From Escherichia coli O127:H6 str. E2348/69 (GTDB taxonomy: Bacteria > Pseudomonadota > Gammaproteobacteria > Enterobacterales > Enterobacteriaceae): a DNA stretch of 64,000 nt. Numbering within the stretch: the first letter of the stretch is position 1; each line of letters opens with the position of its first letter. Positions 10,636 to 55,412 of the stretch are shown here, piece by piece. Position numbers and translations under genes: made by a program. The notes beneath the pieces are model-generated. The model was not told where the DNA came from. It made no database searches and was given only the letters and a program-made list of their open reading frames with translations. Location of the stretch: NCBI RefSeq assembly GCF_000026545.1, contig NC_011601.1; one strand, given 5' to 3'.

Positions 10636-10660
10636 AAAGAAAAAAGGCCGCAGAGCGGCC
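10636..10660. repeat. attL core (direct repeat aaagaaaaaaggccgcagagcggcc)
   Basis: Identical 25-mer found again at 47095..47119; the hairpin ggccgcagagcggcc is the ihfA terminator stem. Confidence 0.85.
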
Positions 10661-17839: not shown

Positions 17840-18799
17840 ATGAAAATTTGTATCGACGACGGCTCCACCAACATCAAGCTGGCATGGACTGAGAACGGCG
17901 AACACCGCAACGCCATCAGCCCGAACAGCTTCAAGTCGGAATGGTCTGCGCCGTTCGGTGGCACGCAGCCCGCGAACTACATGCTTGATGGCGTGCGCTA
18001 TGGTTTTGATCCGGTCAGCGATCGCTTTGTCCAGACGACCGACACGCAATACCAGTACAGCGATGTGAATGTCATTGCCATTCATCATGCGCTGGTCAAA
18101 TCAGGCATCACGCCACAGGAGGTGGATGTGGTTGTCACCCTGCCACTGAGCGAGTATTTCGACACAAACGCACAGCCGGACATGGCCAACATCAACCGCA
18201 AAAAAGCGAACGTTATGCGCCCGGTGGAGTACCAAAACGGCGAGGCATTCACTATCCGTAACGTGCGGGTTATGCCTGAATCCATTCCGGCTGGCTTTAA
18301 AGCACTGGCTGACATGAGTCCGTTTGAATCCCTGCTGATTGTGGATTTGGGCGGAACCACGCTGGATGTGGCAAAGGTTCAGGGGCAACTGGCAGGTATC
18401 AGCCAGGTGTTTTGCGATCCACACGTAGGCGTTTCTCTGATGGCCGATGCCGTGCTGTCGGTGATGGCCACCAACGGTATGCGCACCAGTCACCACATCG
18501 CCAATACCATTATCGAACATCGCCACGATGAAGCCTGGCTGCGCCAGCACATCCACAATGACGCGCATTACGCCAGCCTGATGGCAGTTATTCGTGAAAA
18601 GGAGGAAACACTGAAACAACGCGTGATCCGCGCGCTGGCGGTTTTTTCGGGTTACGGGCGGGTGATGGTTGTCGGTGGAGGGGCGGAGATTGTGGCACCC
18701 GCTATCCGCGAAGCCTGCGGAGTTAATGCGACTTTCATCGCGGACGGGGTGCCACAGTTTGCTCTGGTTAATGGGCTGTACGCAATGGACAAGGAGTAA
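17840..18799 (+). CDS. ParM/StbA-type actin-like segregation ATPase
   Basis: 319-aa ORF; N-terminus MKICIDDGSTNIKLAWTE and the segments YSDVNVIAIHHAL, VMPESIPAG, LLIVDLGGTTLD, VMVVGGGAE parallel plasmid R1 ParM (StbA) along the whole length. Confidence 0.8.
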   Translation: MKICIDDGSTNIKLAWTENGEHRNAISPNSFKSEWSAPFGGTQPANYMLDGVRYGFDPVSDRFVQTTDTQYQYSDVNVIAIHHALVKSGITPQEVDVVVTLPLSEYFDTNAQPDMANINRKKANVMRPVEYQNGEAFTIRNVRVMPESIPAGFKALADMSPFESLLIVDLGGTTLDVAKVQGQLAGISQVFCDPHVGVSLMADAVLSVMATNGMRTSHHIANTIIEHRHDEAWLRQHIHNDAHYASLMAVIREKEETLKQRVIRALAVFSGYGRVMVVGGGAEIVAPAIREACGVNATFIADGVPQFALVNGLYAMDKE

Positions 18800-18803
18800 A
18801 CCA

Positions 18804-19115
18804 ATGACGACTCCAACCAGACGGATAAGTTTCTATCTGAAGCCCACCGCCGTCAAGAACGAAGGAGAAGCATGCGCCTGGCTGGACAGCCTTACACCAG
18901 AAGCCCGCAAAAGCGGCCAACGCGTGGCTTTTCTGGCCGGGCTGGCACTTCTGAAAATGAATCCGGCAGAGGCTTACCGACTGGCTGCATGGGCTGATGA
19001 TGAGGTGTTATCAGTGACACAAACCAAGACAGAACGCCCCGCGTCACAGCCAGTATCAACCGCACAGATAACCAGTCAGATGGCCGGAAATATCCGGGCG
19101 TTATTTCCTGAATAA
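18804..19115 (+). CDS. ParR/StbB-like adaptor protein
   Basis: 103-aa product from MTTPTRRISFYLKP inside the listed 18669..19115 ORF; N-terminal region parallels R1 ParR (RRxIxFxLxP ... LDS ... AGLAL); follows the parM-like gene. Confidence 0.6.
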   Translation: MTTPTRRISFYLKPTAVKNEGEACAWLDSLTPEARKSGQRVAFLAGLALLKMNPAEAYRLAAWADDEVLSVTQTKTERPASQPVSTAQITSQMAGNIRALFPE

Positions 19116-19493: not shown

Positions 19494-20576
19494 ATGGTAA
19501 ACGTGAGGGAGGATGAACTTTTCAAACTCATCGAGCAAGGCATCAAAGGCAACGCAAATGCATTTACACTCCTATGCAGAAAGATGATTAACAACATCCG
19601 TAAAAATGATGAGGCTTTAGCTTCTAAGCTGGCTTCGTTAGTTGCTGAGGGAACAGTATTACGTGGGGCATCTAGTAAGGCTCCTATGCCTGTGGATGGA
19701 GACTCCAGACGAAACCTTTTGCAGGAAACATCTGTCAACGCAATTGTTGAAGAACCTGTATGGAATACGGATATCTCAAAGAAGCTGGAGTCAATTGTTA
19801 ACGAAAGAGAGAATGCGGTTTCTTTGTTCAAAGCTGGTCTTGAACCTGTGAAGACGGTTTTACTTTCTGGCCCGCCAGGCGTAGGCAAAACAATGTCCGC
19901 ACATTGGCTTGCTGCAAAGTTAAATTTACCTCTTTTAACATTGGATCTCTCATCTGTAATGAGTTCTCTTTTGGGAAAAACAGGTAATAATATTAAATCC
20001 GTTATGGATTATGCCAAAGAGAAACCATGTGTCCTTTTGCTTGATGAATTTGATGCTGTTGCAAAAAGACGTGATGATGACAGGGACGTTGGAGAATTAA
20101 AACGTTTAGTTACTGTACTCCTACAGACCATAGATGAGTGGCCAGCGACCTCGCTTCTTGTTGCTGCGACTAATCACCCTGATATCTTAGATCCGGCTGT
20201 TTGGCGTCGATTTGAGCACATCCTTAAATTTAATATGCCATCAGTAGAACTGATAGATAGATATTTAGTCAATCATAATATTGAACCTGAACTATCTAAA
20301 AAACTTGCACCATTATTAGATGGCATGTCCTTTGCCATCATTAACCGTATTTTGAATTTCTCCAAAAAGAATGAGGTACTTAGAAATATTCCATTTGAAA
20401 GCTCATTAATAGAAGCCGTAATTACGGAGAGGGTTTCATTGGATGAGTTTAGCGATAATGATCTCAATATAATTAAATATCATTTTGACGGTTTTTCAAA
20501 TAGGAAGATAGCTGAATTAGTTGGTGTTTCACATCCAACAATCGCGAATAAATTACAAAAGTGGGGGATTAAATGA
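19494..20576 (+). CDS. AAA+ ATPase with C-terminal HTH-like segment (candidate defence component A)
   Basis: 360-aa ORF; Walker A LLSGPPGVGKT, Walker B VLLLDEFDAV, sensor-1/Arg-finger ATNHPDILDPAVWRRF; C-terminal NRKIAELVGVSHPTIANKL; AT-rich codon usage. Confidence 0.8.
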   Translation: MVNVREDELFKLIEQGIKGNANAFTLLCRKMINNIRKNDEALASKLASLVAEGTVLRGASSKAPMPVDGDSRRNLLQETSVNAIVEEPVWNTDISKKLESIVNERENAVSLFKAGLEPVKTVLLSGPPGVGKTMSAHWLAAKLNLPLLTLDLSSVMSSLLGKTGNNIKSVMDYAKEKPCVLLLDEFDAVAKRRDDDRDVGELKRLVTVLLQTIDEWPATSLLVAATNHPDILDPAVWRRFEHILKFNMPSVELIDRYLVNHNIEPELSKKLAPLLDGMSFAIINRILNFSKKNEVLRNIPFESSLIEAVITERVSLDEFSDNDLNIIKYHFDGFSNRKIAELVGVSHPTIANKLQKWGIK

Positions 20577-22777
20577 TGGAAAGGAACTTACTTTTAGGTA
20601 ACGGTCATGTTCTGACAAAAAAGGAACCTTTGCCTAAAGGAAGGGATGGTAAGCGCTATCCCTATACTCTTGAAGAAGTAAGGGAGCATTTAAACCCAGA
20701 GATTGATACTTTACTCTCACGCTTTCGCAGTTTGGATGATGCGGCTAAGCCAAGGGGGGAGAGTGTATTCAATTTAACTTTACACCCAGCGTTTTTGGGT
20801 AAAAGCTACTTTCCGGAAGGATTGCTTAGAGCGACAGGTTTACGGGATGTCGGCAGCCGTCAGGTAATCATTCGCCCACGGAAAGCGGCACGTCAGTGCG
20901 ATCAGAATAAGGACTTAGTAACGGCGCAACTGTTTGTTAGCGGTGATGATGATGCCGTTATAAGATTTAAGGAAATTTTAAATTCCCCTACAGCTCCGAA
21001 GGGCGTACAAAAGGATTTGATCGAAATTGAAAGTGTTAGCTTTTTTGAAGGAAAAGAGAGAGCACGCAATTTTGAGCATGCGAAAAGTGATTTGATAAAA
21101 TTTGAAGTGGTTCTTCATGCTGGGGTTGAAGACGATGATATCGTTAAAGCCTATATTAGCTATGCGGCACAATATGATGTCTCTGTTGATTACAAAAGTA
21201 GAATCCAAGTTGGTGGGCTGACTTTCATCGTTGCACACGCGCGACCTGAAGATATGAAAAAAACACTCGATTTTTCATTAATCCGCGTTGTGCGGCCGAT
21301 GCCGTCTCTCAGGTGTACTCAGCCGAACATTGTCAGAAAGTTATCTAATATAGTTACACCGGAGCTCCCTAATTCTAAAGCTGTTCTTGAATCCGAACGT
21401 ATTGCCATTTTTGATGGTGGCTTGGGGACAGCTGACTTGAGTAATTGGGTTACGGAATACGTGTATCCAGACACCAAAGAAACAAGCGGATTATTATTGC
21501 AGCACGGTAATGAAGTGACATCCACTTTCTTATTCGGACGTGTCGAGGAAAATGCACCTTCTTTTAAAAGACCGTTTATGAATGTAGATCATTATAGAGT
21601 TCTTTCACCGACATCAGGTGACAATGGCAATTGGGATTTATTTGATGTCCTTAAGAAAATACAGTCCGTTCTTGATAGTGGTGACTATAAGTTCGCTAAT
21701 CTAAGTATTGGTCCTCATCTTCCAATTGGTGATGATGAGGTTCATGTATGGACTGCTGTTTTAGACCAAATCTGTGCTAAGCATGGGATATTACTTACTG
21801 TTGCTGTTGGGAATGATGGCAATGAGGACGGTGATGCAGCGAGAATACAACCTCCTTCCGATATGGTAAACGCGCTAGCGATTGGTGCTGCTGATCGTAG
21901 CGGTGAAAAATGGGGGCGGGCACCATATAGCTGTATTGGGCCAGGCAGAAGCCCCGGATTCGTTAAACCTGATGGTGTTATTTTTGGTGGAAGCGACGAC
22001 GAGCCTTTTTACACTTACAACCCTCTGCTTGGTTCTATAGTTGGAGTTCAAGGAACCAGTTATGCCTCTCCATTAGCATTGAGAACGGCCGCTGGAGTTG
22101 CGGCTCTATCAGGAACTCCATTGAACACCATTGCATTGAAAGCGTTGCTTGTTCATCATGCTGAAACATCAAGAAAATATTCGCGTGAACATATCGGTTG
22201 GGGACGGTTTAGTGAGGATCCTAACGTTTTAATCGATTGTCCAAATGATACTGCTACAGTAATTTACTATGGTTCATTAGCAAAAAATAAATATTTAAGG
22301 GCACCGATCCCATTCCCTGATGTTCCCTTTGACGAAGCATTTGAGCTTACCGCTACTTTATGCATTCAAACCCCAGTAGATCCTGAACATTCAGTAAACT
22401 ATACAAGGGCCGGTATGCAGGTAACTTTCCGCCCAAGATTCGGCCTTGACGATACCGATACAGATGATTTCTTTGGTCAAAAAAGCCAGTATAAGACTGA
22501 AAGGGAGTGTAGGAGTGAAGGTCATAAGTGGGAAACTTGTTTGCACAGAAGCAAAAAGTTCAGTGCTGATACATTATTAAGCGATCCAGTTTTTGATATA
22601 CGGTATCATGCCCGAGATTCTTCGCGCCATGTTAAGGGAGTTTCAGCCCCTGATATGCAATATGCGATGGTAATAAGCGTAAGGGTAAAAGACTTTGATT
22701 TATATAATGTTATTCGCCAGCGATATACAATTCTGAATCCTATTCAACTGCGCACACAAATTTCTCTCGACACGTAA
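20573..22777 (+). CDS. subtilisin-like S8 serine peptidase, large multidomain, no signal peptide (candidate defence component B)
   Basis: 734-aa ORF, ATGA-overlapped with the ATPase gene; S8 motifs in order: Asp IAIFDGGLG, His LLQHGNEV, Asn VAVGNDGNEDG, Ser GVQGTSYASPLAL; about 260-aa N-terminal and 200-aa C-terminal extra regions. Confidence 0.8.
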   Translation: MMERNLLLGNGHVLTKKEPLPKGRDGKRYPYTLEEVREHLNPEIDTLLSRFRSLDDAAKPRGESVFNLTLHPAFLGKSYFPEGLLRATGLRDVGSRQVIIRPRKAARQCDQNKDLVTAQLFVSGDDDAVIRFKEILNSPTAPKGVQKDLIEIESVSFFEGKERARNFEHAKSDLIKFEVVLHAGVEDDDIVKAYISYAAQYDVSVDYKSRIQVGGLTFIVAHARPEDMKKTLDFSLIRVVRPMPSLRCTQPNIVRKLSNIVTPELPNSKAVLESERIAIFDGGLGTADLSNWVTEYVYPDTKETSGLLLQHGNEVTSTFLFGRVEENAPSFKRPFMNVDHYRVLSPTSGDNGNWDLFDVLKKIQSVLDSGDYKFANLSIGPHLPIGDDEVHVWTAVLDQICAKHGILLTVAVGNDGNEDGDAARIQPPSDMVNALAIGAADRSGEKWGRAPYSCIGPGRSPGFVKPDGVIFGGSDDEPFYTYNPLLGSIVGVQGTSYASPLALRTAAGVAALSGTPLNTIALKALLVHHAETSRKYSREHIGWGRFSEDPNVLIDCPNDTATVIYYGSLAKNKYLRAPIPFPDVPFDEAFELTATLCIQTPVDPEHSVNYTRAGMQVTFRPRFGLDDTDTDDFFGQKSQYKTERECRSEGHKWETCLHRSKKFSADTLLSDPVFDIRYHARDSSRHVKGVSAPDMQYAMVISVRVKDFDLYNVIRQRYTILNPIQLRTQISLDT

Positions 22778-24328: not shown

Positions 24329-26079
24329 CAGAACTCCATAACCGTGAAACGCTCGTTTTCTCCTTCGCCGCCAATCGGTTCGTTAATGACAGCAAGCATG
24401 GTTGCCCACGCAAGGTCGCCGTGGCTGATCCCCCTCGCGCGGTCCGTTTCGTAAGTGATAAAGCCGCCCGGTGTTTTCACCTTACGCACGGCGTTAAAGG
24501 CCGCGACCAGCTCGCGTTCGGCGCGATCGTATTCCCACCGCCCGGCACGCATTATGTGCAGCATTTTCAGTACCAGCGACCGTTTTGATGACAGCGTGAA
24601 GGTGTACGGAATAGCAGCAGGGAAAAACCGTTTCACTATCTGATAAACAGCCTCCCCGTTCCCGCCCGTCACATCAATGCCGATGTGTTCCACGTTGTAG
24701 CGATACGTGAACTCTTCAATGACTCTGGCCTGTTCTTCAAACTCCAGCCCTTGAACGCGTCGCGTCTCCACCGTTCGAAAACGGCCACCAGGAACAGCCG
24801 GAGGAACCACCACGGACACAGCGCCGCTGTCGCCGTTGCCACTACTGCCGTTTGCGTCATACCCAATCCATACCGGACGATTCCCCATCGGGCGGGGAGC
24901 AAAAGGTTTCCAGTCTTTCCAGTCGTCGTATCCGTCAACACCGCAGCCAATCAGGATATTCAGGTTAAATGCCGATTCCCCTTCGCGGACAAACTCACAC
25001 ATATAGAGATTGAGGAACTCGTCTTCGGTGTTTTCATCACGAATTTCGTCGATATCAGTGTGTTTCCAGCCGTGATTAACCACATCTTCCAGCGTGACAA
25101 TTTGCCGCCACGTCCGGTCAGGGCAGATAAGCCCGTTATGCAGCGTTTTCCAGTCCACAGAAAAACGCTGGCGTTTATGCGAGGCCTTTTTCTCATTCCA
25201 GCGGTCGCCGTTCCAGTAGGCGTATGCCTCGTGCGTTTCGGTGGATGGCGTGGAGAAGTAGGTGCGCCGCAGTCCGCTGAGGGTTGCCATAGCGCCAGCC
25301 ACCTTGCGCAGTTCAGCAAAGCGACTGACCCAGAAAAATTCATCAAAATAAAAATTGCCCGTATAGGACTGTGCCGACGCAGCAGAAGTGCCGAGAAAAT
25401 GCAGCTCTGCGCCGTTGGAGAGGATGATTTTATCGCCCCCTTTCAGCTCCACATCAACTTCAGCCGCGGCCTTCTGAATAATGCTTTTAAACTGGAACGC
25501 CTGACGACGCGACGCAGACAAAAAAATCTGGTTACGCTGGTAAGGTTGCGCCACATCGTCACGCAGCGCCATCAGCAGTGCTTCCTGTGCAAAATACCAG
25601 GTCGCCCCAATCTGTCGGGATTTCAGGATCATCCTGTTACGTATCCCGGCTTCCCTGCAAAGGGTCAGGGAGTCAAACCAGCCCCGCTGATGCCACTCCA
25701 GCCTGCTGATGATTTTTTCCCGCAGTGCGGCAATCTGTTCCGGCGTGAAATGATTTTTGAGTTTTTTCGCCCGGCCTTTCTTTCCTGCGGCCGTCGCATC
25801 CGGCTGGCCATCATGCAGCTTTTTAAGCTGCCGGGTCAGCAGGTCTATTTCCTTAAAGTCACCGCCTGTTTTATTCTGTTTTTCAGTAAGCTGGATGAGA
25901 CGCGCATCGATGGACTGCGTGACACGCTGCACGGGTGGCGTTTCATCCCACTGGTCACGTTTTTTCCACGCATAAATCGTGTTCGGGTTTATTCCCATCA
26001 GACGTGATATTTCTGCGGGCGGATAACCCTGCCAGTAAAGTTGCCGCGCACGCTGGCGCACAAAAGCGTCCTGAATCAT
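24328..26079 (-). CDS. P: terminase large (ATPase) subunit
   Basis: 583-aa ORF; P2 gpP length and position; overlaps the Q start. Confidence 0.88.
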   Translation of the reverse strand: MIQDAFVRQRARQLYWQGYPPAEISRLMGINPNTIYAWKKRDQWDETPPVQRVTQSIDARLIQLTEKQNKTGGDFKEIDLLTRQLKKLHDGQPDATAAGKKGRAKKLKNHFTPEQIAALREKIISRLEWHQRGWFDSLTLCREAGIRNRMILKSRQIGATWYFAQEALLMALRDDVAQPYQRNQIFLSASRRQAFQFKSIIQKAAAEVDVELKGGDKIILSNGAELHFLGTSAASAQSYTGNFYFDEFFWVSRFAELRKVAGAMATLSGLRRTYFSTPSTETHEAYAYWNGDRWNEKKASHKRQRFSVDWKTLHNGLICPDRTWRQIVTLEDVVNHGWKHTDIDEIRDENTEDEFLNLYMCEFVREGESAFNLNILIGCGVDGYDDWKDWKPFAPRPMGNRPVWIGYDANGSSGNGDSGAVSVVVPPAVPGGRFRTVETRRVQGLEFEEQARVIEEFTYRYNVEHIGIDVTGGNGEAVYQIVKRFFPAAIPYTFTLSSKRSLVLKMLHIMRAGRWEYDRAERELVAAFNAVRKVKTPGGFITYETDRARGISHGDLAWATMLAVINEPIGGEGENERFTVMEF

Positions 26080-26233
26080 TGCTCCCCCTGAGTAATTACA
26101 GGAAGATTACCCGCGCGCGAAACTGTTCTCCTTAACCCCCTGTTCTGGCCGTTTTCTTACAACAAAAGCCCTTTGTATCAGCCTGTTACGCTTTGCCATC
26201 ATGACTGAAGAACCAGTCAGAGGGGCAAAAACT

Positions 26234-27070
26234 ATGGCTAATGAAAAAAAGACATCCCGCAAAAAGTTTCGCGTGGCTGTCTCCGGATCAACTGTTGATG
26301 GCCGTGAAATCAGTCCGGTGCATCTGCGTGAAGCCGCCGAGAACTTCAACCCGGATGTTTACGCTGCCCGCGTGAACGTTGAGCACTATCTCTCGCCATG
26401 CCCGTCAAGCGAATTTTCCGCAATGGGCGATGTCACCGCACTGAGTACGGAAGACATTACGGAAGGTCCGCTGGCCGGACGTACTGCGCTGTATGCAGAA
26501 ATCGAACCGACCGAGCGCATGAAGCAGCTTGTCGCGGACGGCAAGAAAATCTATTCCAGTATCGAACTGCACCCGCAGTTCTCCGTTAACGGGCGCGCCT
26601 ATCTGGTCGGGCTGGCGATGACCGACACCCCGGCAAGCCTGGGCACTGAGCGCCTGAAATTCACGGCACAGCAACGTCAGGCGGTGATGACGTTCAACAG
26701 TATCCAGGGTGAAGCGCCGCTTATCTCCGAAGCCATCGAGTCTGAAATCATCGAAATGGCAGAACAACGCCAGGAAGAAGGCACCCAGTGGTTTAACCGC
26801 GTAATGGGGATTATTGGCCGTGGCCGCAAAGCGGATGACGCCAGTTTTTCCCGTATTCAGGAAGCGGTGGAAGGCGTCGCAACGTCACAGGCCGACATTA
26901 TCGACCGTTTTAATGTGCTGGAAACCCGCCATCAGCAGGACCGCCAGAAAATTACGTCACTGACCACAGAGCTGGCAGCACTGAAGGAAAAACTGCGCAC
27001 GCAGGACGGCGATCCGCAGAACCGGTTCACCGCAACAGGTGCAGCCTCCGACCAGCTGGCTGACTTCTGA
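26234..27070 (+). CDS. O: capsid scaffolding protein
   Basis: Product from MANEKKTSRKKFRVAVSGSTVDGREISPVHL parallels P2 gpO (FRIGVEGDTCDGRVISAQDI); divergent from P/Q. Confidence 0.85.
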   Translation: MANEKKTSRKKFRVAVSGSTVDGREISPVHLREAAENFNPDVYAARVNVEHYLSPCPSSEFSAMGDVTALSTEDITEGPLAGRTALYAEIEPTERMKQLVADGKKIYSSIELHPQFSVNGRAYLVGLAMTDTPASLGTERLKFTAQQRQAVMTFNSIQGEAPLISEAIESEIIEMAEQRQEEGTQWFNRVMGIIGRGRKADDASFSRIQEAVEGVATSQADIIDRFNVLETRHQQDRQKITSLTTELAALKEKLRTQDGDPQNRFTATGAASDQLADF

Positions 27071-27093
27071 TAAGACAAAGGAGCAAATTTTTT

Positions 27094-28146
27094 ATGAATC
27101 TGGTGATGTCAGATATTACCCGCAACAAGCTGGGTTGCTATATGGCGCAGCAGGCGTCGCTTAATAATATTCCGGTTTCCGCACTGGTATCGCGATTTAC
27201 CGTGGAACCCTCGGTGCAGCAGCGTTTTGAAAACGCCTCAAAGGAAAGCACCGAATTTACAAAAAGAATTAACGTGATCGGCGTGACCGACCAGAAAGGC
27301 GAAAAAATCCTCCTGGACACCACCGGGCCAATTGCACGCACGAATACCGGTTATGACGGCACAAAACGCCGTAACCCGAATAACGTGGTTGATCTGAAAA
27401 ACCGCAAATACCAGTGCGAACAGGTGAACTACGACACGTTTATTTCATATCCGCAGCTTGATGCCTGGGCGGCACATCCTGATTTTCAGTCCCGCATCAG
27501 CGCACAGATTGCCCGGCAGGTGGCGCTTGACCGCATCATGATCGGTTTCAACGGCACGTCTCACGCGGATGAGTCCAACTTCAGCACCAACAAGCTGCTT
27601 CAGGACGTTAACGTGGGATGGCTGGAGCACATCAGAACCGACGCCAGCGAACGCGTTATGAATGACGTGACGCTGACCTCCCGCAACATGGACAACACCG
27701 TGGCGCACGCGGGTAAGTATGCGAACGCTGATGCACTGGTACAGGACGCGCGTTCATCCCTGCTGGATGAATGGCACAAGGAAGCTGACGACCTTGTGGT
27801 GATTATGGGGCGCAACCTGTTTAACTCGCTGCGTCTGCCCGTGCTGAACAGCATCAGCGGCCAGAATCCCAATGCGGAATTACTTGCCGGGCAGCTCATC
27901 CTGTCATCGCGCACCATTGGCGGGCTGGGCGTGTTCCTTGCACCGTTCTTCCCGGATGCAACGATGCTGATCACCTCGTTCAACAACCTGTCGATTTACT
28001 GGCAGAAAGGTTCAATGCGTCGCCTGATGAAAGACGAGCCGGAATACAACCGCATCGCCACCTACCAGTCCATCAATGACGCTTATGTCGTTGAAGACTA
28101 TGGCAAGTGCGCGATGGTTACTGGCCTGAAGTTCGCCGACAGCTAA
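27094..28146 (+). CDS. N: major capsid protein
   Basis: 350-aa ORF; extensive similarity to P2 gpN (FTVEPSV, MIGFNG, DYVVEDY segments). Confidence 0.9.
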   Translation: MNLVMSDITRNKLGCYMAQQASLNNIPVSALVSRFTVEPSVQQRFENASKESTEFTKRINVIGVTDQKGEKILLDTTGPIARTNTGYDGTKRRNPNNVVDLKNRKYQCEQVNYDTFISYPQLDAWAAHPDFQSRISAQIARQVALDRIMIGFNGTSHADESNFSTNKLLQDVNVGWLEHIRTDASERVMNDVTLTSRNMDNTVAHAGKYANADALVQDARSSLLDEWHKEADDLVVIMGRNLFNSLRLPVLNSISGQNPNAELLAGQLILSSRTIGGLGVFLAPFFPDATMLITSFNNLSIYWQKGSMRRLMKDEPEYNRIATYQSINDAYVVEDYGKCAMVTGLKFADS

Positions 28147-28191
28147 TCAACTCACGGCGGGCATCATGCCCGCCTGTAACGGAGAGAAAAA

Positions 28192-28992
28192 ATGATTACT
28201 CCTGCACAGCAACACTGGCAGAACGTGATGGCACAGCGCGCAGGCCGGGCGAATGAAGGCGTGGACCACGCCGCGCGTACCGCGCATGAAGAGGTGCTGT
28301 ATCGTCTGCGTCTGGCACAGGCCCGGCTTAAGGGCGTACAGGCCAGAAGCGCGAAAGCCGCCATCAAAAAAGAGTTGTTGCCGGATTTTTCCGGCTGGAT
28401 TGAGGGAACGCTGGAGGCTGACGGCGGGCAGCAGGATGAAGTGATTGCCACGCTGATGGTGTGGGCGATTGACTGTGGCGATCTTCCGCTGGCGTTGCGT
28501 ATTGGTGCGTATGTGGTCCGTCACAACCTCATCATGCCGGATAACTTTGGCCGTACTGCTGCCACGGTACTGACCGAAGAAATCTGTAATCCGGTACTGA
28601 CGCAGGCCGGGACGGATGCCGACGCGGATTTGTCCGCCTTTATCGAACCACTGGACACCCTCCGGGAGATTGTCACCGACCAGGACATGCCGGACGAAGT
28701 GCGCGCCAAATTATGCAAAGCGTGCGCCTTTGCCCGCCGTGGCCTGAGTGATGCGGACAGCATGGCCCTGTCACTGAAGCTGCTGCGCGAAGCAATGCAC
28801 CTGAACCCGAACGCAGGTGTGAAACGCGAGATTGCAACCCTTTCCCGCGCCCTGAAAAAAGCCGATTCCGCAGCCGCACCAGAAGATGCCAGCACACCGC
28901 AGGCGCAGGACGAAAGCAGCAAAAGTAAAAAGACAACGCGGAAGCCTGCAACACGAAAAACCACCGCGACGCAGAAGGCGAAGCGCGGTTAA
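28192..28992 (+). CDS. M: terminase small/endonuclease subunit
   Basis: 266-aa ORF at the P2 gpM position; basic Lys/Arg-rich C-terminal tail. Confidence 0.7.
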   Translation: MITPAQQHWQNVMAQRAGRANEGVDHAARTAHEEVLYRLRLAQARLKGVQARSAKAAIKKELLPDFSGWIEGTLEADGGQQDEVIATLMVWAIDCGDLPLALRIGAYVVRHNLIMPDNFGRTAATVLTEEICNPVLTQAGTDADADLSAFIEPLDTLREIVTDQDMPDEVRAKLCKACAFARRGLSDADSMALSLKLLREAMHLNPNAGVKREIATLSRALKKADSAAAPEDASTPQAQDESSKSKKTTRKPATRKTTATQKAKRG

Positions 28993-29084
28993 CGACTGAC
29001 CCCGTCAGCGGGCGGCGTGCGCGGTGTTCCGGTTTGACTCCGTGACCGCTTACACCGCGCACCCACCGCCCGATTTTTTCAGGA

Positions 29085-29588
29085 GTGAACCCCATGAGTA
29101 TGGTTGCCAGAACCAACCCCGGACCCGCAGAGGACGACATCACCGATACCGATGATGGCGATACCCGCATTTCAGCGGGTGCATTCTGGCCGGATATTGT
29201 GCTGCGCGAGCTGCGTCTGGCGGTACGACTGCCGGGGCGCGTGACCACCTCCCGCCTGCTGCATACTGCCACCGGGGCTGTGGCACACGTTACCCGCGAG
29301 CTGGAAGCATGGCAGCAGGAACAGCAGGCAGCTGGCCATCAGACGCTGGCCGATGTTCCGGCACCCGTAATTAACGGAGAAAGCGTCAATCTCTGGCACT
29401 GGCGCAATGCTGTTTATACCGCCACGCGCGCCCTGATTCTGGAGCGTTATCGTGATGCAGACACTACGGACAAGGGCGACCGCCGGGCGGACGCTCTGGA
29501 TATACAGACATCGGATTTGTGGCGTGATGTGAGCTGGGCCATCTCTGACATTCTGTGCCGCCCGCGAATCTTTGCGGAGTTGTGCTGA
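29085..29588 (+). CDS. L: head completion/stabilisation protein
   Basis: 167-aa ORF; parallels P2 gpL (LADVPA ... GES ... LWRDVSWAI ... CRP). Confidence 0.8.
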   Translation: MNPMSMVARTNPGPAEDDITDTDDGDTRISAGAFWPDIVLRELRLAVRLPGRVTTSRLLHTATGAVAHVTRELEAWQQEQQAAGHQTLADVPAPVINGESVNLWHWRNAVYTATRALILERYRDADTTDKGDRRADALDIQTSDLWRDVSWAISDILCRPRIFAELC

Positions 29589-29788
29589 TGAAAGTGAAGG
29601 CACTGGAAGGCGACACCGTGGATTCGCTCTGTTTCCGGTACTACGGCACGACGCAGGGCGTCACCGAAAAGGTGCTGGATGCCAACCCCGGACTCTGTCA
29701 GCAGGTATTTCTGGACGCCGGGCAGGAAGTGGAGATGCCGGAGCCGGAGAAGAAGAAACGAGAAATGATTCAGTTGTGGGGGGAGTAG
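29588..29788 (+). CDS. X: small tail protein (P2 gpX-like)
   Basis: 67-aa product MKVKALEGDTVDSL...; ATGA overlap with the L stop; same length as P2 X. Confidence 0.7.
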   Translation: MKVKALEGDTVDSLCFRYYGTTQGVTEKVLDANPGLCQQVFLDAGQEVEMPEPEKKKREMIQLWGE

Positions 29789-29790
29789 CA

Positions 29791-30114
29791 GTGAGCACCA
29801 TTCAAACAGGGATCACAGAGCAGGTTATTGCGTGGCTCTTTGACCACCTGCCAACGGTGTATGCAGTAGGCGCGGCGGTCAGCATTTCCGCGCTGATGAG
29901 CCTTTATGACGGACGAACACTGGTTCAGACCGTAACGGGATCGCTGGCGTGCGGCGTTCTTGCCATGGCCGTGGCCGGGTCGTTGCGCTTCTTCGGGTTT
30001 CCTGAAGATGCCGTGACGTTTATCGGCGCATCAATCGGTTTTATGGGTGCAGAGAAAGCACGCGACAAGGTTATTGCGGCCTTTAATCGCAGGGTGAAGG
30101 AGAAGGACGAATGA
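29791..30114 (+). CDS. holin (P2 gpY position)
   Basis: GTG start after ggggggag RBS; 107 aa with hydrophobic TM segments and a charged C-terminus. Confidence 0.6.
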   Translation: MSTIQTGITEQVIAWLFDHLPTVYAVGAAVSISALMSLYDGRTLVQTVTGSLACGVLAMAVAGSLRFFGFPEDAVTFIGASIGFMGAEKARDKVIAAFNRRVKEKDE

Positions 30115-30503
30115 GCAACACATTTAAATTCAGCAGCCGGAGCGAAAAGAATTTGCAGGGCGTAAATCCTGATCTGGTGAAAGTGACCCGACGGGCACTG
30201 GAAATCTCGGAAGTGGATTTTGGTATCACCGAAGGGTTGCGCAGCCGTTACCGCCAGAAGCAACTGGTGGCCACGGGTAAGAGCCAGACCATGAACAGCC
30301 GCCACCTTACGGGGCATGCCGTGGATGTTGTGGCTTATATCGGCAGCCAGGTGTCATGGGAATGGCCGCTGTACGAAAAAATCGCAGCAGCATTCAGACA
30401 GGCCAGCCGGGAACTGAATATTCCGGTGGAATGGGGCGGCGACTGGAAGACCCTGAAAGACGGACCGCATTTTCAGTTACCACACGGAGCCTATCCGGCA
30501 TGA
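30111..30503 (+). CDS. endolysin, peptidase M15 (L-Ala-D-Glu / VanY-like) type
   Basis: 130-aa ORF; SRHLTGHAVDV and WGGDW zinc-peptidase motifs; replaces the lysozyme gene K of P2. Confidence 0.75.
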   Translation: MSNTFKFSSRSEKNLQGVNPDLVKVTRRALEISEVDFGITEGLRSRYRQKQLVATGKSQTMNSRHLTGHAVDVVAYIGSQVSWEWPLYEKIAAAFRQASRELNIPVEWGGDWKTLKDGPHFQLPHGAYPA

Positions 30504-30907
30504 AGCTCTGGCCCACGCTTGGCGTCGCTTTCCTTCTGACTGCCGGATGGGGAACATCCATGCGTCTGTCGTGGTCGCTGGGCCGGGAGAACGCCAGAAA
30601 CGAAGCGCAGGCCAGCACCCTGAAAAGTACCGCCGACACCCTGAATATCATCAGCGCCGGGGTACAGGATATGCAGCAGGTGCTGGCGCAACTCCGCGTG
30701 GAAAATCAGCAACGCAATCAGGACGGAGAGGTAAGACGTGAACAGCTACGCAACGATATTGCAAAAGATGAATGCGCCCACGCTTTGCCTGACGCTCGTT
30801 TTACTGACAGGCTGCGCAGGCACGCAGAACGCGCCACTGCCAGCGCCGTCAGTCCGGCTTATACCGCAGACGCTGACCATACCGGTAACGCCTCCCCCCT
30901 TCCCTGA
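30500..30907 (+). CDS. i-spanin (Rz/LysB-like)
   Basis: Product from MKLWPTLGVAFLLTAGWG has an N-terminal TM helix then a charged coiled region; ATGA overlap with the endolysin. Confidence 0.65.
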   Translation: MKLWPTLGVAFLLTAGWGTSMRLSWSLGRENARNEAQASTLKSTADTLNIISAGVQDMQQVLAQLRVENQQRNQDGEVRREQLRNDIAKDECAHALPDARFTDRLRRHAERATASAVSPAYTADADHTGNASPLP

Positions 30908-31058
30908 CACTCCCACATGGGGAAAACTCGGTATATGGGGCGACCACCTTCTGGATGCACTGGAAACCTGTAACGCGGATAAACGGGCCATTGAATTACT
31001 GGAACAGCGCAGGCTGCAACGACTGAACAACGAGGATAACAACCATGCTGAAAACTGA
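30768..31058 (+). CDS. o-spanin lipoprotein (Rz1/LysC-like), overlapping the i-spanin in another frame
   Basis: MNAPTLCLTLVLLTGCAG lipobox signal, proline-rich body. Confidence 0.6.
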   Translation: MNAPTLCLTLVLLTGCAGTQNAPLPAPSVRLIPQTLTIPVTPPPFPDTPTWGKLGIWGDHLLDALETCNADKRAIELLEQRRLQRLNNEDNNHAEN

Positions 31059-31512
31059 TTCCCTGCGTGAAGCCATGACCCGTTCATGCCGATGGTGTCA
31101 GGCCAACCCGGAAAAATTCACCATTTTCGTGGAGAGCGGCAACATTGAAACGACCGGAGAAACTCCCTCGTTTGTTTACCGCTATCAGATGGTGATGTTT
31201 GTCATGGATTACGCCGGAGAGCTGGACGACCTCACGCTGCCGCTGCTGGCCTGGTTATCCGAAAATCAGCCACAGTTGTTGCTCAATCCGGAGCGTAATC
31301 AGGACATCAAATTTTCTGCCGTTATCAATGACGATGACAGCGCCGATCTCCTGTTTACGCTCCCCCTGCGGGAACGCGTTCGCATCACGCGCAGCAGTCA
31401 GGGTACACCGCAGGCAGAACACCTGCCGGAGCCAAAACCCCGCCTGCCCTCTTCCGAAGGCGAATGGTCGCATGTATTCCAGGATGTGACGTGGGGTGAA
31501 AGCGATGGATAA
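31045..31512 (+). CDS. R: tail completion protein
   Basis: 155-aa ORF; parallels P2 gpR (MLKxDSLR ... LAWLxENQP). Confidence 0.85.
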   Translation: MLKTDSLREAMTRSCRWCQANPEKFTIFVESGNIETTGETPSFVYRYQMVMFVMDYAGELDDLTLPLLAWLSENQPQLLLNPERNQDIKFSAVINDDDSADLLFTLPLRERVRITRSSQGTPQAEHLPEPKPRLPSSEGEWSHVFQDVTWGESDG

Positions 31513-32140
31513 GGCATTCATCCGCGTGGATGAAACCCTTGAGGCCATCCGCGACAGCCTGAATCAGCAGGCCATCAATAACATCGCCAGAAAGCTGGCA
31601 CAGGATTTACGCCGCGCCCAGCAGGCGCGCATCCGGTCACAGAAAGCGCCGGACGGGACCGCGTGGACACCACGCAGACGCCGCGTAACCCGGATACAGG
31701 AGCGCATTCGCTTTATCTGGAATAACGAAGCACGCACGCTGAAAAACTGGCATCACGACACGGGGAAATACGGGCGAACCATTACCGGGTGGGATGAGGA
31801 TAAAAACAATATCCGCACGTTTTACCGGGATGACATCGACCGTTTTCTGGAAATACGCACCCGGCGCATCAACCAGGACAGTACAAAGCGCGTCCCCATG
31901 TTCGTAAAACTGCGCACCGCCCGCTACCTGAAAGCCCGTGCAGATGCTTCCGGTGTGACGGTGGGTTACAGCGGCGTGGCCGCACGTATTGCACGCGTTC
32001 ATCAGTTCGGTGAGCGCGATCAGGTTGCGCCGGGCATTTTCACCGATTACCCGGTACGTGAGCTGCTGGGTATCAGCCAGGCAGATGAGCGCCTGATTTA
32101 TAACACGGTGCTGGGCCGGATTGCGGAGGCTGTACGGTGA
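31496..32140 (+). CDS. S: tail completion / virion morphogenesis protein
   Basis: 214-aa ORF at the gpS position; longer than P2 S. Confidence 0.65.
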   Translation: MKAMDKAFIRVDETLEAIRDSLNQQAINNIARKLAQDLRRAQQARIRSQKAPDGTAWTPRRRRVTRIQERIRFIWNNEARTLKNWHHDTGKYGRTITGWDEDKNNIRTFYRDDIDRFLEIRTRRINQDSTKRVPMFVKLRTARYLKARADASGVTVGYSGVAARIARVHQFGERDQVAPGIFTDYPVRELLGISQADERLIYNTVLGRIAEAVR

Positions 32141-32718
32141 GCGCAGAACTCATGCGACTGCTGAGCAACATCATTCGCACCGGGATCATCTCTGAAGTTG
32201 ATGAGAAGTCCTGGCGCGTGCGCGTTCGCAGCGGCGAACTGGAAACAGGCTGGCTGCGCTGGAACACCACGCGCGCGGGAGCCTTCAATGTGTGGCTGCC
32301 GCCATCACCAGGCGAACAGGTGGTAATTGCCTGCATTGGCGGCAACCCGGAAACCGCCATGATAATTGGCAGCCTGTGGAGTGATGCTATTCCGGCCCCC
32401 GGCAAAAGCCTGAAAGAAATCGTGGTCAGCGCGCCGGATGGCGCGGTGTTCCGCTACGACGCGGACGCAGGCGCACTGAGCGCCAGCGGCATGAAAACAG
32501 CCACCCTGCAGGCATCCGTCAGCGTGACACTGGATACGCCCGTCGTGGAATGCACAGACCTTCTGAGAACGGCGACGCTTGACGTCACAAAAGGGGGAAA
32601 GATGAGCGGCAATATCACGCACAGCGGCGGCAATTTCACCTCAAACGGCATCACAGTGCATACGCATAAACACGGTGGCGTTAAAGGTGGCAGCTATTCG
32701 ACAGGAGGCCCGCAGTGA
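32137..32718 (+). CDS. V: baseplate spike/assembly protein
   Basis: 193-aa ORF; gpV-like with C-terminal HxH motif (HTHKHGG). Confidence 0.8.
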   Translation: MSAELMRLLSNIIRTGIISEVDEKSWRVRVRSGELETGWLRWNTTRAGAFNVWLPPSPGEQVVIACIGGNPETAMIIGSLWSDAIPAPGKSLKEIVVSAPDGAVFRYDADAGALSASGMKTATLQASVSVTLDTPVVECTDLLRTATLDVTKGGKMSGNITHSGGNFTSNGITVHTHKHGGVKGGSYSTGGPQ

Positions 32719-33065
32719 CAACCCGCTACACAGGAATGAACCCGGACGGAACGGGAAACCTGAACGATATGGAGCACCTGAAACAGTCAGTCAGGGACAT
32801 CCTGACCACCCCGCTGGCAAGCCGGGTTATGCGACGGGAATATGGCAGCCTTGTGCCTGATTTGATTGACGAACCCATGAATAACACCACGCGTCTGCAA
32901 TGCATGAGTGCTGCCGTGATTGCGCTGACACGATGGGAACCCCGCATTGCCCTGGACGCTATCGACGTTGTCTGGAAGGCAGGAGGCCGCGCCGGGGTGA
33001 CGCTGTCGGGCACTGTCATGCAGACCATGCAGAATGTTGAATTAACCATCACGCTGAGAGAGTAA
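32715..33065 (+). CDS. W: baseplate wedge protein (GPW/gp25 family)
   Basis: 116-aa ORF; same size and position as P2 gpW. Confidence 0.8.
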   Translation: MTTRYTGMNPDGTGNLNDMEHLKQSVRDILTTPLASRVMRREYGSLVPDLIDEPMNNTTRLQCMSAAVIALTRWEPRIALDAIDVVWKAGGRAGVTLSGTVMQTMQNVELTITLRE

Positions 33066-37233: not shown

Positions 37234-37700
37234 TATGCGGTTCTCACAATATAATTGAAGGCAATATTGCGTGGGTGGGTTTCATTCCCCTCTGAGGATT
37301 CCGTTCTGTATTGACTGGTAAATCTACCGTTAATTGCACCTTGCCGGACGGCGTTATCTGTCGACAACAGACTATCCCCTCCTTTGTCATTTGGCACCAA
37401 CACCGTGTTATCCCACGCATCCCATGACCGAATATTATGATAATGACTTCCTGTTAACCACCCCTGCATGCTTAAGATGCCCCTTCCGGCATCCACCCCG
37501 CGCCCATCATCCCAGCCACGGATAAATTCACCGCGTAAATCCGGTAATTTATTGGTGGGGTAGGCCTTTGCCAGTTTTGGGTACATTTCAGAAGAAAATG
37601 CTGCACCGTTACATTTCAGCCACCCTGCTGGCGGTGTGGCTGAGGGCCACGGAACAGGTACACCAACGGGCAGTGCAGAGCCTTCCCCCAAACCAACGTT
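37233..37700 (-). other. alternative tail-fibre C-terminal cassette 3 (inverted orientation)
   Basis: Minus-strand ORF (listed 37233..37748) encodes the same GEGSALPVGVPVPW ... PRNIAFNYIVRTA frame with a distinct central segment. Confidence 0.7.
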
Positions 37701-37708
37701 TTCGTTTT
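37683..37708. repeat. candidate crossover site C (inverted orientation)
   Basis: Reverse complement reads aaaacgaaaacgttggtttgggggaa. Confidence 0.45.
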
Positions 37709-37762
37709 TATCCCTACCTATACCAACTCTGTATTTTTCACGAAACAAAGAGGATGTTTTTT

Positions 37763-38362
37763 ATGCAAATTGGCTATATTCGTGTGTCAACAAATGACCA
37801 GAACACGGATTTACAACGCAATGCACTGAACTGCGCAGGATGTGAACTGATTTTTGAAGATAAAATCAGCGGAACGAAATCAGCCAGACCGGGATTGAAA
37901 AAACTGCTCAGAACGCTATCAGAAGGAGATACGCTGGTTGTCTGGAAGCTGGACAGACTGGGCAGAAGTATGAAACACCTGATCACGCTTATTGAGGAAT
38001 TGCGGGAAAAAGGTGTTAATTTCCGTAGTCTGACGGACAGCATTGACACATCAACACCCATGGGGCGTTTCTTTTTTCACGTCATGGGGGCTTTAGCCGA
38101 AATGGAACGTGAATTAATTGTAGAGCGTACACTGGCCGGGCTGGCAGCAGCACGCGCACAAGGACGCATTGGCGGACGTCGCCCGAAGTTGACAAAAGAA
38201 CAACACGAGCAAATAGCGAGGCTGATTAAAAACGGTCATGACAGGAAACAACTGGCGATCATTTACGACATCGGCATATCGACGATTTATCGTTATCACC
38301 CTGTAGGCGATATACAGGCTGAAGAAACAACCAGGCAGACTCAGGAAAATAAAAACCGCTAA
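37763..38362 (+). CDS. serine recombinase DNA invertase (Gin/Cin/Pin/Hin family)
   Basis: 199-aa product MQIGYIRVSTNDQNTDLQRNAL ... LVVWKLDRLGRSMKHL ... GRIGGRRPKLT, near-colinear with Mu Gin; the listed ORF 37568..38362 includes a spurious upstream extension. Confidence 0.92.
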   Translation: MQIGYIRVSTNDQNTDLQRNALNCAGCELIFEDKISGTKSARPGLKKLLRTLSEGDTLVVWKLDRLGRSMKHLITLIEELREKGVNFRSLTDSIDTSTPMGRFFFHVMGALAEMERELIVERTLAGLAAARAQGRIGGRRPKLTKEQHEQIARLIKNGHDRKQLAIIYDIGISTIYRYHPVGDIQAEETTRQTQENKNR

Positions 38363-46241: not shown

Positions 46242-46502
46242 ATGTTCCGTTGTCCGCTTTGTGGCGCATCTGCCCGTATCCGCACCAGTCGTCCGGAAAA
46301 TGATTCAAACACCGTGCGGCAAAAGTATTACCAGTGTAACAACCTGGAATGCGGCGTATGCTTCTCAACACTGGAAGCTTTCCATAAATTCACATCGAAA
46401 CACGCCTCCGGCATCCACTCTTCAGAAGGTATCCCGTGGCATGAGCTGCCAGCTTCACACAGGGGAAACAATCAGATGAGCTTGCCTTTACCTCAGAATT
46501 AA
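46242..46502 (+). CDS. ogr: late gene activator, Ogr/Delta zinc-finger family
   Basis: MFRCPLCGASARIRTSR ... YYQCNNLECGVCFSTLE matches the P2 Ogr CxxC-N-CxxxxC pattern. Confidence 0.85.
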   Translation: MFRCPLCGASARIRTSRPENDSNTVRQKYYQCNNLECGVCFSTLEAFHKFTSKHASGIHSSEGIPWHELPASHRGNNQMSLPLPQN

Positions 46503-46562: not shown

Positions 46563-46775
46563 ATGGTCGGAGGGAATACCCGAAGGCCAGATGTGGAAAG
46601 GCCCCGGAAAACATCTCTGTTTAACCGAGGCCCTAACCGCATTACCTTGACAAGTGAAAGGTTAGCGCCTCTCCGGAAAAGGAGCAAGTGCTATGTCGCA
46701 AAAATCGCTTACGGCCATCACGTTCTGCGTGACGGCAATCCTCATCATCTGGATGTTGCACGGTTCGCTGTGTGA
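46563..46775 (+). CDS. mok-like overlapping leader reading frame of the hok-type locus
   Basis: 70-aa ORF overlapping the hok-like gene in another frame, as in hok/mok/sok loci. Confidence 0.4.
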   Translation: MVGGNTRRPDVERPRKTSLFNRGPNRITLTSERLAPLRKRSKCYVAKIAYGHHVLRDGNPHHLDVARFAV

Positions 46776-46833
46776 AATACGGATGAGCTTCTGGGGAGCG
46801 GAGTTTGCGGCGTTCTTACAGTGTAAGCAGTAA
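46693..46833 (+). CDS. Hok/Gef-family type I toxin (small membrane protein)
   Basis: 46-aa ORF MSQKSLTAITFCVTAILIIWMLHGSLCEIRMSFWGAEFAAFLQCKQ: one TM helix, then the Hok-family SLCEIR and AAF motifs; ggag RBS upstream; not in the ORF track (under 60 aa). Confidence 0.7.
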   Translation: MSQKSLTAITFCVTAILIIWMLHGSLCEIRMSFWGAEFAAFLQCKQ

Positions 46834-46954: not shown

Positions 46955-47094
46955 GGTGTCCTCACCGACTTGAAACAGTGATCAGACTATAAGACAAAGC
47001 CCACAATGTAGCGGGCTTACTCCCCTCCCCCCACTAAATGTGGACGCATCGTGGAACGAAGAGATATAAAACATTATAAATCAATTAGTTATTG

Positions 47095-47119
47095 AAAGAA
47101 AAAAGGCCGCAGAGCGGCC
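47095..47119. repeat. attR core (direct repeat) overlapping the ihfA terminator
   Basis: Same 25-mer as at 10636..10660; on the minus strand it gives the ggccgctctgcggcc hairpin plus T-tract just downstream of ihfA. Confidence 0.85.
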
Positions 47120-47136
47120 TTTTTAGTTAGATCAGA

Positions 47137-47436
47137 TTACTCGTCTTTGGGCGAAGCGTTTTCGACCCGGCTTTTTAACTTCTGCCCGGGTCTGAAGGTC
47201 ACCACGCGCCGTGCTGTAATGGGAATATCCTCGCCCGTTTTCGGGTTACGTCCCGGGCGTTGATTCTTATCACGCAGATCGAAGTTACCAAAACCAGAGA
47301 GTTTCACCTGTTCGCCGTTTTCCAGAGCGCGACGGATCTCTTCGAAAAACAGTTCAACCAGTTCTTTGGCATCCCGCTTGCTAAGCCCAAGCTTATCAAA
47401 CAGATATTCTGACATTTCAGCTTTTGTAAGCGCCAT
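47137..47436 (-). CDS. ihfA: integration host factor alpha subunit
   Basis: 99-aa [41 protein letters not shown]... recognised as IHF-alpha. Confidence 0.95.
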
Positions 47437-54977: not shown

Positions 54978-55412
54978 ATGAGTAAAAACGATATCATTAT
55001 CAGAACTCATTATGAGTCTCCTCTTAGAATGCACATCGATAGCGACATACTAACGCCTTCATCAGAGCCTATTAATCAATTTGCGCGCCAGCTCATCACC
55101 CTACTTGATACCTCTGATTTAAGTTCGATGCTGTCATACTGTGTTACTCAGGAATTTACCGCAAGCTGTCGAAAAATATCACACAATTGTTATTCCACTG
55201 CCCTTTTTATCATTAGCTTTACCACTTCACCCATCCATGCAGAAAATACACTCATTACATTACACTATAAAAAAGAAATCATTTCCTTATTTCTGGAAAC
55301 CACGCCTATTAAAGCTAACCATTTGCGAAGCATACTGGATTATATTGAACAGGAACAGTTAACTGCCGAAAAACGTAACCATTGCATGAAACTGTCCAAA
55401 AAAAATTCATAG
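54978..55412 (+). CDS. hypothetical protein in AT-rich island downstream of thrS (possibly a pseudogene fragment)
   Basis: 144-aa ORF in a strongly AT-rich stretch, followed by short overlapping ORFs (55461..55763, 55693..55887) that look like gene remnants. Confidence 0.35.

Follow-up and report, generated by a model that had tools for sequence, protein, structure and literature searches.

A cluster of phage lysis genes was analyzed in a window of 64,000 nucleotides (nt) from Escherichia coli O127:H6 str. E2348/69 (NC_011601.1; "the window" denotes this whole stretch of DNA), where it occupies positions 29791-31058 of the + strand. The list of open reading frames (ORFs) and a reading of 29400-31500 revealed four genes in a tight + strand run, encoding i) a holin, ii) a zinc-peptidase endolysin, iii) an inner-membrane spanin (i-spanin) and iv) an outer-membrane spanin (o-spanin). 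The cluster is bordered upstream by the P2-type tail gene X (29588-29788, +; PF05489 Phage_tail_X, E=8e-21) and downstream by the P2-type tail completion gene R (31045-31512, +; PF06891 P2_Phage_GpR, E=4.6e-40), while the gene upstream of X matched PF05926 (GPL). At the DNA level the cassette was 100% identical to the E. coli E2348/69 record NZ_CP059840.2 (H4J01_RS11390 to RS11380 plus lysC), in which RefSeq names the products "phage holin family protein", "M15 family metallopeptidase", "DUF2570 domain-containing protein" and "Rz1-like lysis system protein LysC". An earlier note on this DNA had described the endolysin and both spanins as a lysis cassette that differs from that of phage P2; these genes were all recovered at the coordinates given, with profile matches well beyond what chance would give, and the cassette was found to extend upstream to the holin at 29791-30114, which likewise is unlike its P2 counterpart and which the note had omitted.

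The endolysin gene (ATG 30111 to TGA 30503, +) encodes a 130-amino-acid (aa) protein, which profile and Protein Data Bank (PDB) matches assign to the M15 (LAS-type) zinc peptidases. PF13539 Peptidase_M15_4 scored 46.0 bits (cut-off 25), PHROG 465 "endolysin" matched at E=5e-77, and the motifs H65-x6-D72 and D117-x2-H120 were present, as the earlier note had read from the letters; that note had also considered that a profile search might assign the protein to a non-lytic family, and the search placed it among the M15 endolysins. In the structure search it matched M15 structures only: Serratia marcescens ChiX (5OPZ; E=2.5e-48, 62% identity over 126 residues), an M15C-domain protein (23RI; 63% identity), LysECD7 (8Q2G, PMC11267749; E=2.7e-46), an L-alanyl-D-glutamate peptidase (2MXZ; E=8.8e-23) and Listeria Ply500 (2VO9). 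In particular, R44, H65, D72, D117 and H120 aligned with R47, H68, D75, D120 and H123 of ChiX, and the zinc ligands aligned also with H62, D69 and H117 of LysECD7. ChiX is a zinc enzyme (ligands His68, Asp75 and His123) that cleaves the L-Ala-D-Glu bond of peptidoglycan in vitro and whose catalytic Asp120 is essential, the D120A variant being inactive (PMC5778951). Given such high identity to an enzyme of proven activity, we infer by analogy that the endolysin in the window cuts the same bond.

Moreover, the endolysin contained no hydrophobic segment (maximum 15-residue hydropathy 0.74); it is therefore predicted to be a cytoplasmic, holin-dependent enzyme with neither a signal nor a signal-arrest-release (SAR) sequence, rather than a SAR endolysin. 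ChiX, its closest biochemically proven relative, likewise has no signal peptide and depends on a holin for export. The endolysin of phage PY100 (64% identity), LysECD7 and 2MXZ are, like the protein in the window, single-domain zinc L-alanyl-D-glutamate peptidases of ~130 aa; they differ in their sources, which are virulent phages with unrelated backbones (myoviruses, T5-like) and other holins and spanins. Phage records with a homologue of the endolysin numbered 1326 and covered many genera. The base composition of the M15 gene (G+C content 54.7%, or 62.6% at third codon positions) was like that of the neighboring genes and thus gave no compositional sign of recent foreign origin. The ORF list held no second muralytic gene in the X to R slot.

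Upstream of the endolysin, the holin gene (29791-30114, +) starts with GTG, preceded by GGGGAG, and encodes 107 aa. The product matched PF05106 at 71.1 bits (cut-off 23.8; positions 5-99 of the 99-position profile covered) and also PHROG 126 (E=1.7e-35), which assigns it by sequence to the lambda S family; under the stricter NCBIfam equivalog TIGR01594 it scored 54.5 bits, just below the cut-off of 55.05. At a hydropathy threshold of 1.5, hydrophobic segments were found at residues 20-39 and 44-70. The Met-Lys-Met dual-start motif was absent: there is a single start codon, GTG, the protein begins with MSTIQTG, and no further Met occurs before residue 36, which lies within the first transmembrane segment.

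Downstream of the endolysin lies the gene for a predicted Rz-like i-spanin of 135 aa with a membrane anchor and a periplasmic domain (ATG 30500 to TGA 30907, +). The protein matched PHROG 214 "Rz-like spanin" over its full length, N-terminus included (E=2e-41), and scored 19.5 bits against Pfam DUF2570, under the cut-off of 26.6. Its single periplasmic Cys (Cys92) was found also in the relatives from Klebsiella phage 3LV2017 and Enterobacter phage phiT5282H in an alignment that included P2 LysB. The second spanin gene (30738-31058, +) encodes, when read from its GTG, a predicted Rz1/LysC-like outer-membrane lipoprotein of 106 aa, with matches to PF23793 LysC (46.4 bits, cut-off 27), PHROG 3001 (E=1e-24) and PHROG 456 (E=6e-15). 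The lipobox LTGC places the lipidated Cys at residue 26 and is followed by Ala at +2, compatible with sorting to the outer membrane; it fits the consensus [LVI][ASTVI][GAS]C without Asp at +2 (Kongari et al. 2018, PMC6139136). The mature protein would comprise 81 aa with 10 Pro and one Cys. This Cys (Cys78) was invariant in all four aligned sequences (window, 3LV2017, phiT5282H and P2 LysC), where it lies in a TWG...LLDAL.TCNADK block.

The o-spanin gene lies in the +1 frame relative to the i-spanin gene ((30738-30500) mod 3 = 1) and begins after the first 238 nt of the latter; the two genes have 170 nt in common, a further 151 nt of the o-spanin gene follow the i-spanin stop, and the last 14 nt belong also to gene R. 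Thus the pair has the "overlapped" architecture, a class defined by Kongari et al. 2018 (PMC6139136), and not the "embedded" one, and the out-of-frame start of the lipoprotein gene within the i-spanin gene, noticed earlier, was confirmed. The closely related phage P88, discussed below, is not listed in the SpaninDB supplements of that study.

Three starts are available to the o-spanin gene: GTG 30738, ATG 30768 and CTG 30789, the last being the choice of RefSeq. The CTG leaves just eight residues ahead of the lipidated Cys. The gene most likely starts at GTG 30738 rather than at CTG 30789, because i) a Shine-Dalgarno-like GGAGAGG (30725-30731, +) was read 6 nt 5' of the GTG, ii) the GTG gives a signal peptide of 25 residues with Lys in its N-region, and iii) the homologous ORF in 3LV2017 also begins with GTG, encodes an equally long signal peptide and lacks an internal Met. 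The GGAGAGG upstream of the GTG was kept in the phages P88, Chuche and vB_EcoM-705R2. In the records of P88 (NC_026014) and Chuche (PP925824) the o-spanin coding sequence is unannotated.

Underneath the four genes, minus-strand ORFs at 29925-30317 and 30746-31087 were read as by-products of a G+C-rich coding strand, because every + strand gene matches a profile strongly. Scans with Rfam and for tRNA genes returned no match inside the cassette.

The cassette lies in a P2-like prophage of ~36.5 kb, which is integrated between btuC and ihfA and carries 25-bp direct repeats at both ends (AAAGAAAAAAGGCCGCAGAGCGGCC, at 10636-10660 and 47095-47119). This repeat is probably the attachment (att) core and contains the hairpin-like GGCCGCAGAGCGGCC; an Rfam match to the small RNA STnc540 (47051-47195, minus strand) overlaps its right copy. 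By annotation the prophage is complete, with integrase, repressor-region genes, replication endonuclease, portal, terminase and ogr, all of its genes are open, and the late operon from O to S holds no pseudogene. Throughout the prophage the arrangement of genes resembles that of P2: O, N, M, L and X precede the lysis genes, and R, S, V, W, J, I, H and G come after them. An invertase gene and the tail genes FI, FII, E, T, U and D are also present, and an Ogr/Delta-like gene lies at 46242-46502.

The nearest relative of the cassette was phage P88 (Xuanwuvirus, Peduoviridae; NC_026014), from which it showed essentially no difference: DNA identity from X to the o-spanin gene was 99.0%, and protein identity was 98.1% for the holin, 100% for the endolysin, 98.5% for the i-spanin and 95.3% for the o-spanin. 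P88 is inducible by mitomycin C and gives infectious particles, and its "lysin" is phylogenetically distinct from the lysins of other P2-like phages (PMC5285337). An identical endolysin was found in phage Chuche, deposited as a complete phage genome with mud as its source. Furthermore, at a query coverage of at least 80%, the M15 cassette was found in 1007 of the 5426 complete E. coli genomes, and a version with the same holin and spanins and a GH108 endolysin was found in 32. The M15 cassette is the normal state of the genus Xuanwuvirus and no oddity of the E2348/69 locus. In a separate observation, homology to the window ended in the 3' end of the o-spanin gene (~30993) in vB_EcoM-705R2, 569R5 and the prophage record PV468777; in 705R2 (ON470623.1, 1868-3285) the place of gene R is taken by a CP-933V-like gene and a small ORF annotated as "peptidase". 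This break may be an effect of record coordinates (ON470623 being a partial genome) or a recombination junction.

Mosaic lysis cassettes are a textbook trait of tailed phages, and in this genus an exchange of the endolysin could be observed directly. Citrobacter phage Shae_phiSM shares the Xuanwuvirus backbone, and by blastn its DNA aligned with the window at 96.9% identity as far as 30091 and again, at 97.3%, from 30521; the interval gave no match. The exchangeable segment thus spans 30092-30520 (unstranded): the 429 bp of the window that hold the M15 gene are replaced in Shae_phiSM by 640 bp with a 181-aa GH108 plus PG_binding_3 muramidase, while the holin, i-spanin and o-spanin are 90%, 91% and 96% identical in aa sequence. 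The swap therefore demonstrates the modularity of the endolysin. A broader proposal, that the interval from the 3' end of the holin gene to the 5'-terminal ~20 nt of the i-spanin gene is a recurrent point of endolysin exchange in Xuanwuvirus and that this cassette type is the source lineage of domesticated secretion cassettes such as Serratia chiWXYZ, is speculative, and we consider it doubtful.

Comparison with phage P2 had to be made on proteins and profiles, because blastn against its late region found no DNA similarity at E<=1e-3. The flanking genes are homologous to those of P2 (BLASTP aa identities of 38% for L, 48% for X, 40% for R and 26% for S), and the P2 genes Y, K, lysA, lysB and lysC, like the genes in the window, lie in the late O operon between X and R. 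The order of holin, endolysin, i-spanin and overlapped o-spanin in the +1 frame is also alike. On the other hand, the holin belongs to PF05106 in the window and to PF04550 in P2 (Y), with no similarity between the two by BLASTP; the endolysin is an M15 peptidase in the window and a lambda-R-type muramidase in P2 (K); and lysA of P2 has no counterpart in the cassette. The endolysin gave no significant BLASTP match to P2 K, which itself matched the lambda lysozyme structure 1AM7 at E=4e-44, in agreement with the earlier claim that it is not a lysozyme of the K type. Thus, as judged from protein sequences, the whole cassette differs from that of P2, not the endolysin alone.

For the spanins the difference is of another degree. 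Aligned with their P2 counterparts, as the earlier note had suggested, the o-spanin was 28% identical to LysC (BLASTP E=0.008), while the i-spanin gave no BLASTP match to LysB. The o-spanin shares PF23793 and the conserved single periplasmic Cys with LysC, and found no match at E<=0.01 with the narrow P2_Rz1 equivalog NF038368. The i-spanin falls outside the LysB equivalog TIGR03495 (16.2 bits against a cut-off of 92.75, where P2 LysB itself scored 174.5), and between it and LysB there were weak reciprocal PHROG cross-matches (E=2e-4). Because of the shared LysC family and these cross-matches, the spanins appear to be distant relatives of LysB and LysC that have diverged, not unrelated replacements. 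Other genera of Peduoviridae carry other parts again in the X to R slot: in the Reginaelenavirus 3LV2017 and the Novemvirus phiT5282H, the slot contains a weakly HP1-like holin (under the Pfam cut-off) and a PF00959 lysozyme. The modular replacement of lysis genes within a P2-like late operon, as proposed earlier, is therefore borne out for the endolysin by the Shae_phiSM swap and by the P2-homologous flanks, and has to be modified in that the spanins are diverged kin; moreover P2 is not an ancestor, so that "replacement" carries no known direction.

Lysis of Gram-negative hosts by phages takes three standard steps, namely the opening of holes by the holin, degradation of the wall, and fusion of the membranes by spanins, and the cassette holds a candidate for each. 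The four genes would be transcribed late as part of the capsid and tail operon (O N M L X - holin - endolysin - i-spanin/o-spanin - R S), presumably via the Ogr-like activator. Translation of the lysis genes would be coupled by two ATGA overlaps (holin/endolysin at 30111-30114 and endolysin/i-spanin at 30500-30503), which are the usual sign of such coupling. The lambda-S-type holin would build up in the inner membrane and open large holes at a set time, through which the signal-less M15 peptidase, folded in the cytoplasm, would exit to cut L-Ala-D-Glu in the stem peptides. After the loss of the wall, the inner-membrane i-spanin and the outer-membrane o-spanin, already joined across the periplasm, would fuse the two membranes and the cell would burst. 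The timing of lysis, the bond cleaved, the fusion of membranes and the control by Ogr are extrapolated here from knowledge of lambda, P2 and ChiX.

We therefore read the locus as very probably (at a probability of about 0.93) a functional set of lysis genes that belongs to an intact prophage of the P88 type (Xuanwuvirus, Peduoviridae). Several observations weigh against this: i) the N-terminal segment of the i-spanin, LWPTLGVAFLLTAGWGTSM, is only moderately hydrophobic (mean Kyte-Doolittle hydropathy 1.35 over residues 3-17), so that of the i-spanin-like gene with an N-terminal transmembrane segment claimed earlier the gene stands firmly and the segment, a hydrophobic stretch of residues 3-21, with less force; ii) the third transmembrane segment of the holin (~residues 73-88) is weak, below the hydropathy threshold used; iii) no antiholin was identified in the cassette, neither as a dual start nor as an equivalent of lysA; and iv) no Ogr-type TGT-N12-ACA dyad was present in the P/O intergenic region (26080-26233), and late-promoter control is therefore assumed rather than shown. 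That region holds one TGT-N15-ACA and two CTGTTCT repeats. Across the window TGT-N12-ACA occurred 11 times against 16 expected, which is uninformative. In favor of the reading, a simple scan of 25800-33000 for sites resembling promoters or terminators gave none on the + strand; it likewise gave no counterpart of the attenuator that P2 has in lysC.

Whether the cassette is in use depends on the state of the prophage. DNA damage often fails to induce P2-like prophages, as is established for P2, and the genes could accordingly be intact in sequence and yet idle in a cryptic or non-inducible prophage, save perhaps for rare spontaneous lysis. This is unlikely, considering that the late genes O to S are all open, that integrase, repressor-region, replication, terminase, portal and ogr genes are present, that the att repeats are intact, and that the near-identical P88 responds to mitomycin. 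The likeness to ChiX raises a different doubt, as chiWXYZ of Serratia has the same four-part make-up (a single-start holin of the lambda S family, an M15 peptidase and two spanin-like genes, with ChiW, ChiY and ChiZ likened by their description), and with a signal-less M15 endopeptidase so close to ChiX the holin, peptidase and spanins might form a domesticated device for protein release instead of a phage lysis module. However, chiWXYZ is chromosomal, lies outside any prophage and serves chitinase secretion, and no phage genes adjoin it (PMC4259817), whereas the genes in the window are translationally coupled between X and R of a complete prophage, and identical genes occur in free phages; a release device is thus very improbable here.

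Even less credit can be given to the view that the 130-aa protein is a non-lytic wall enzyme, such as a VanY-like D-Ala-D-Ala carboxypeptidase, and that the endolysin is supplied by another gene. Pfam does describe PF13539 as "D-alanyl-D-alanine carboxypeptidase", but the nearest characterized relatives (ChiX, LysECD7 and 2MXZ) are L-Ala-D-Glu endopeptidases or endolysins, and the PHROG match is to endolysins. Furthermore the gene is flanked by a holin and spanins in a slot that offers no other muralytic gene, and the sister phage Shae_phiSM has its GH108 muramidase at the same place. A working phage lysis cassette thus remains by far the most probable reading.

As a discovery the cassette carries little weight: it was already known, its genes being annotated with these functions both in RefSeq and in phage records, it is ordinary, common and well understood, and its enzyme family has crystal structures and biochemistry. 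Its value lies rather in three points: i) it provides a clean natural swap of a single endolysin gene (M15 versus GH108) with breakpoints mapped in 97%-identical phages; ii) it draws attention to o-spanin genes, which even now are absent or mis-started in phage and genome records; and iii) an endolysin of an inducible coliphage that is so similar to ChiX may interest engineers of M15 lysins.

Other features were observed in the prophage and its flank. An AAA ATPase and an S8 peptidase are encoded at 19494-22777 (+), with the portal gene on one side and the par/replication genes on the other, and in PADLOC they matched IetA (E=3.6e-89) and IetS (E=6.6e-41), the proteins of the anti-phage system IetAS; judged by these matches, the IetAS-like pair is defence cargo in a variable region of the P2-like prophage. 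Genes annotated as ParM-like segregation and "plasmid partitioning/stability" proteins (17840-19115) adjoin the replication endonuclease gene, an unusual cargo for an integrated P2-like phage. A recombinase (invertase) gene at 37263-38362 has as neighbors a truncated pseudogene of a tail protein and alternative genes for tail fibres and assembly, an arrangement that resembles a switch working by inversion of tail-fibre genes. The annotation also places a toxin gene of the Hok/Gef family (46693-46833) past the Ogr/Delta-like gene, at the prophage's right end. Finally, the chromosomal flank holds a frameshifted and truncated pseudogene of a ShET2/EspL2-family type III effector (54978-55758), adjoining thrS.

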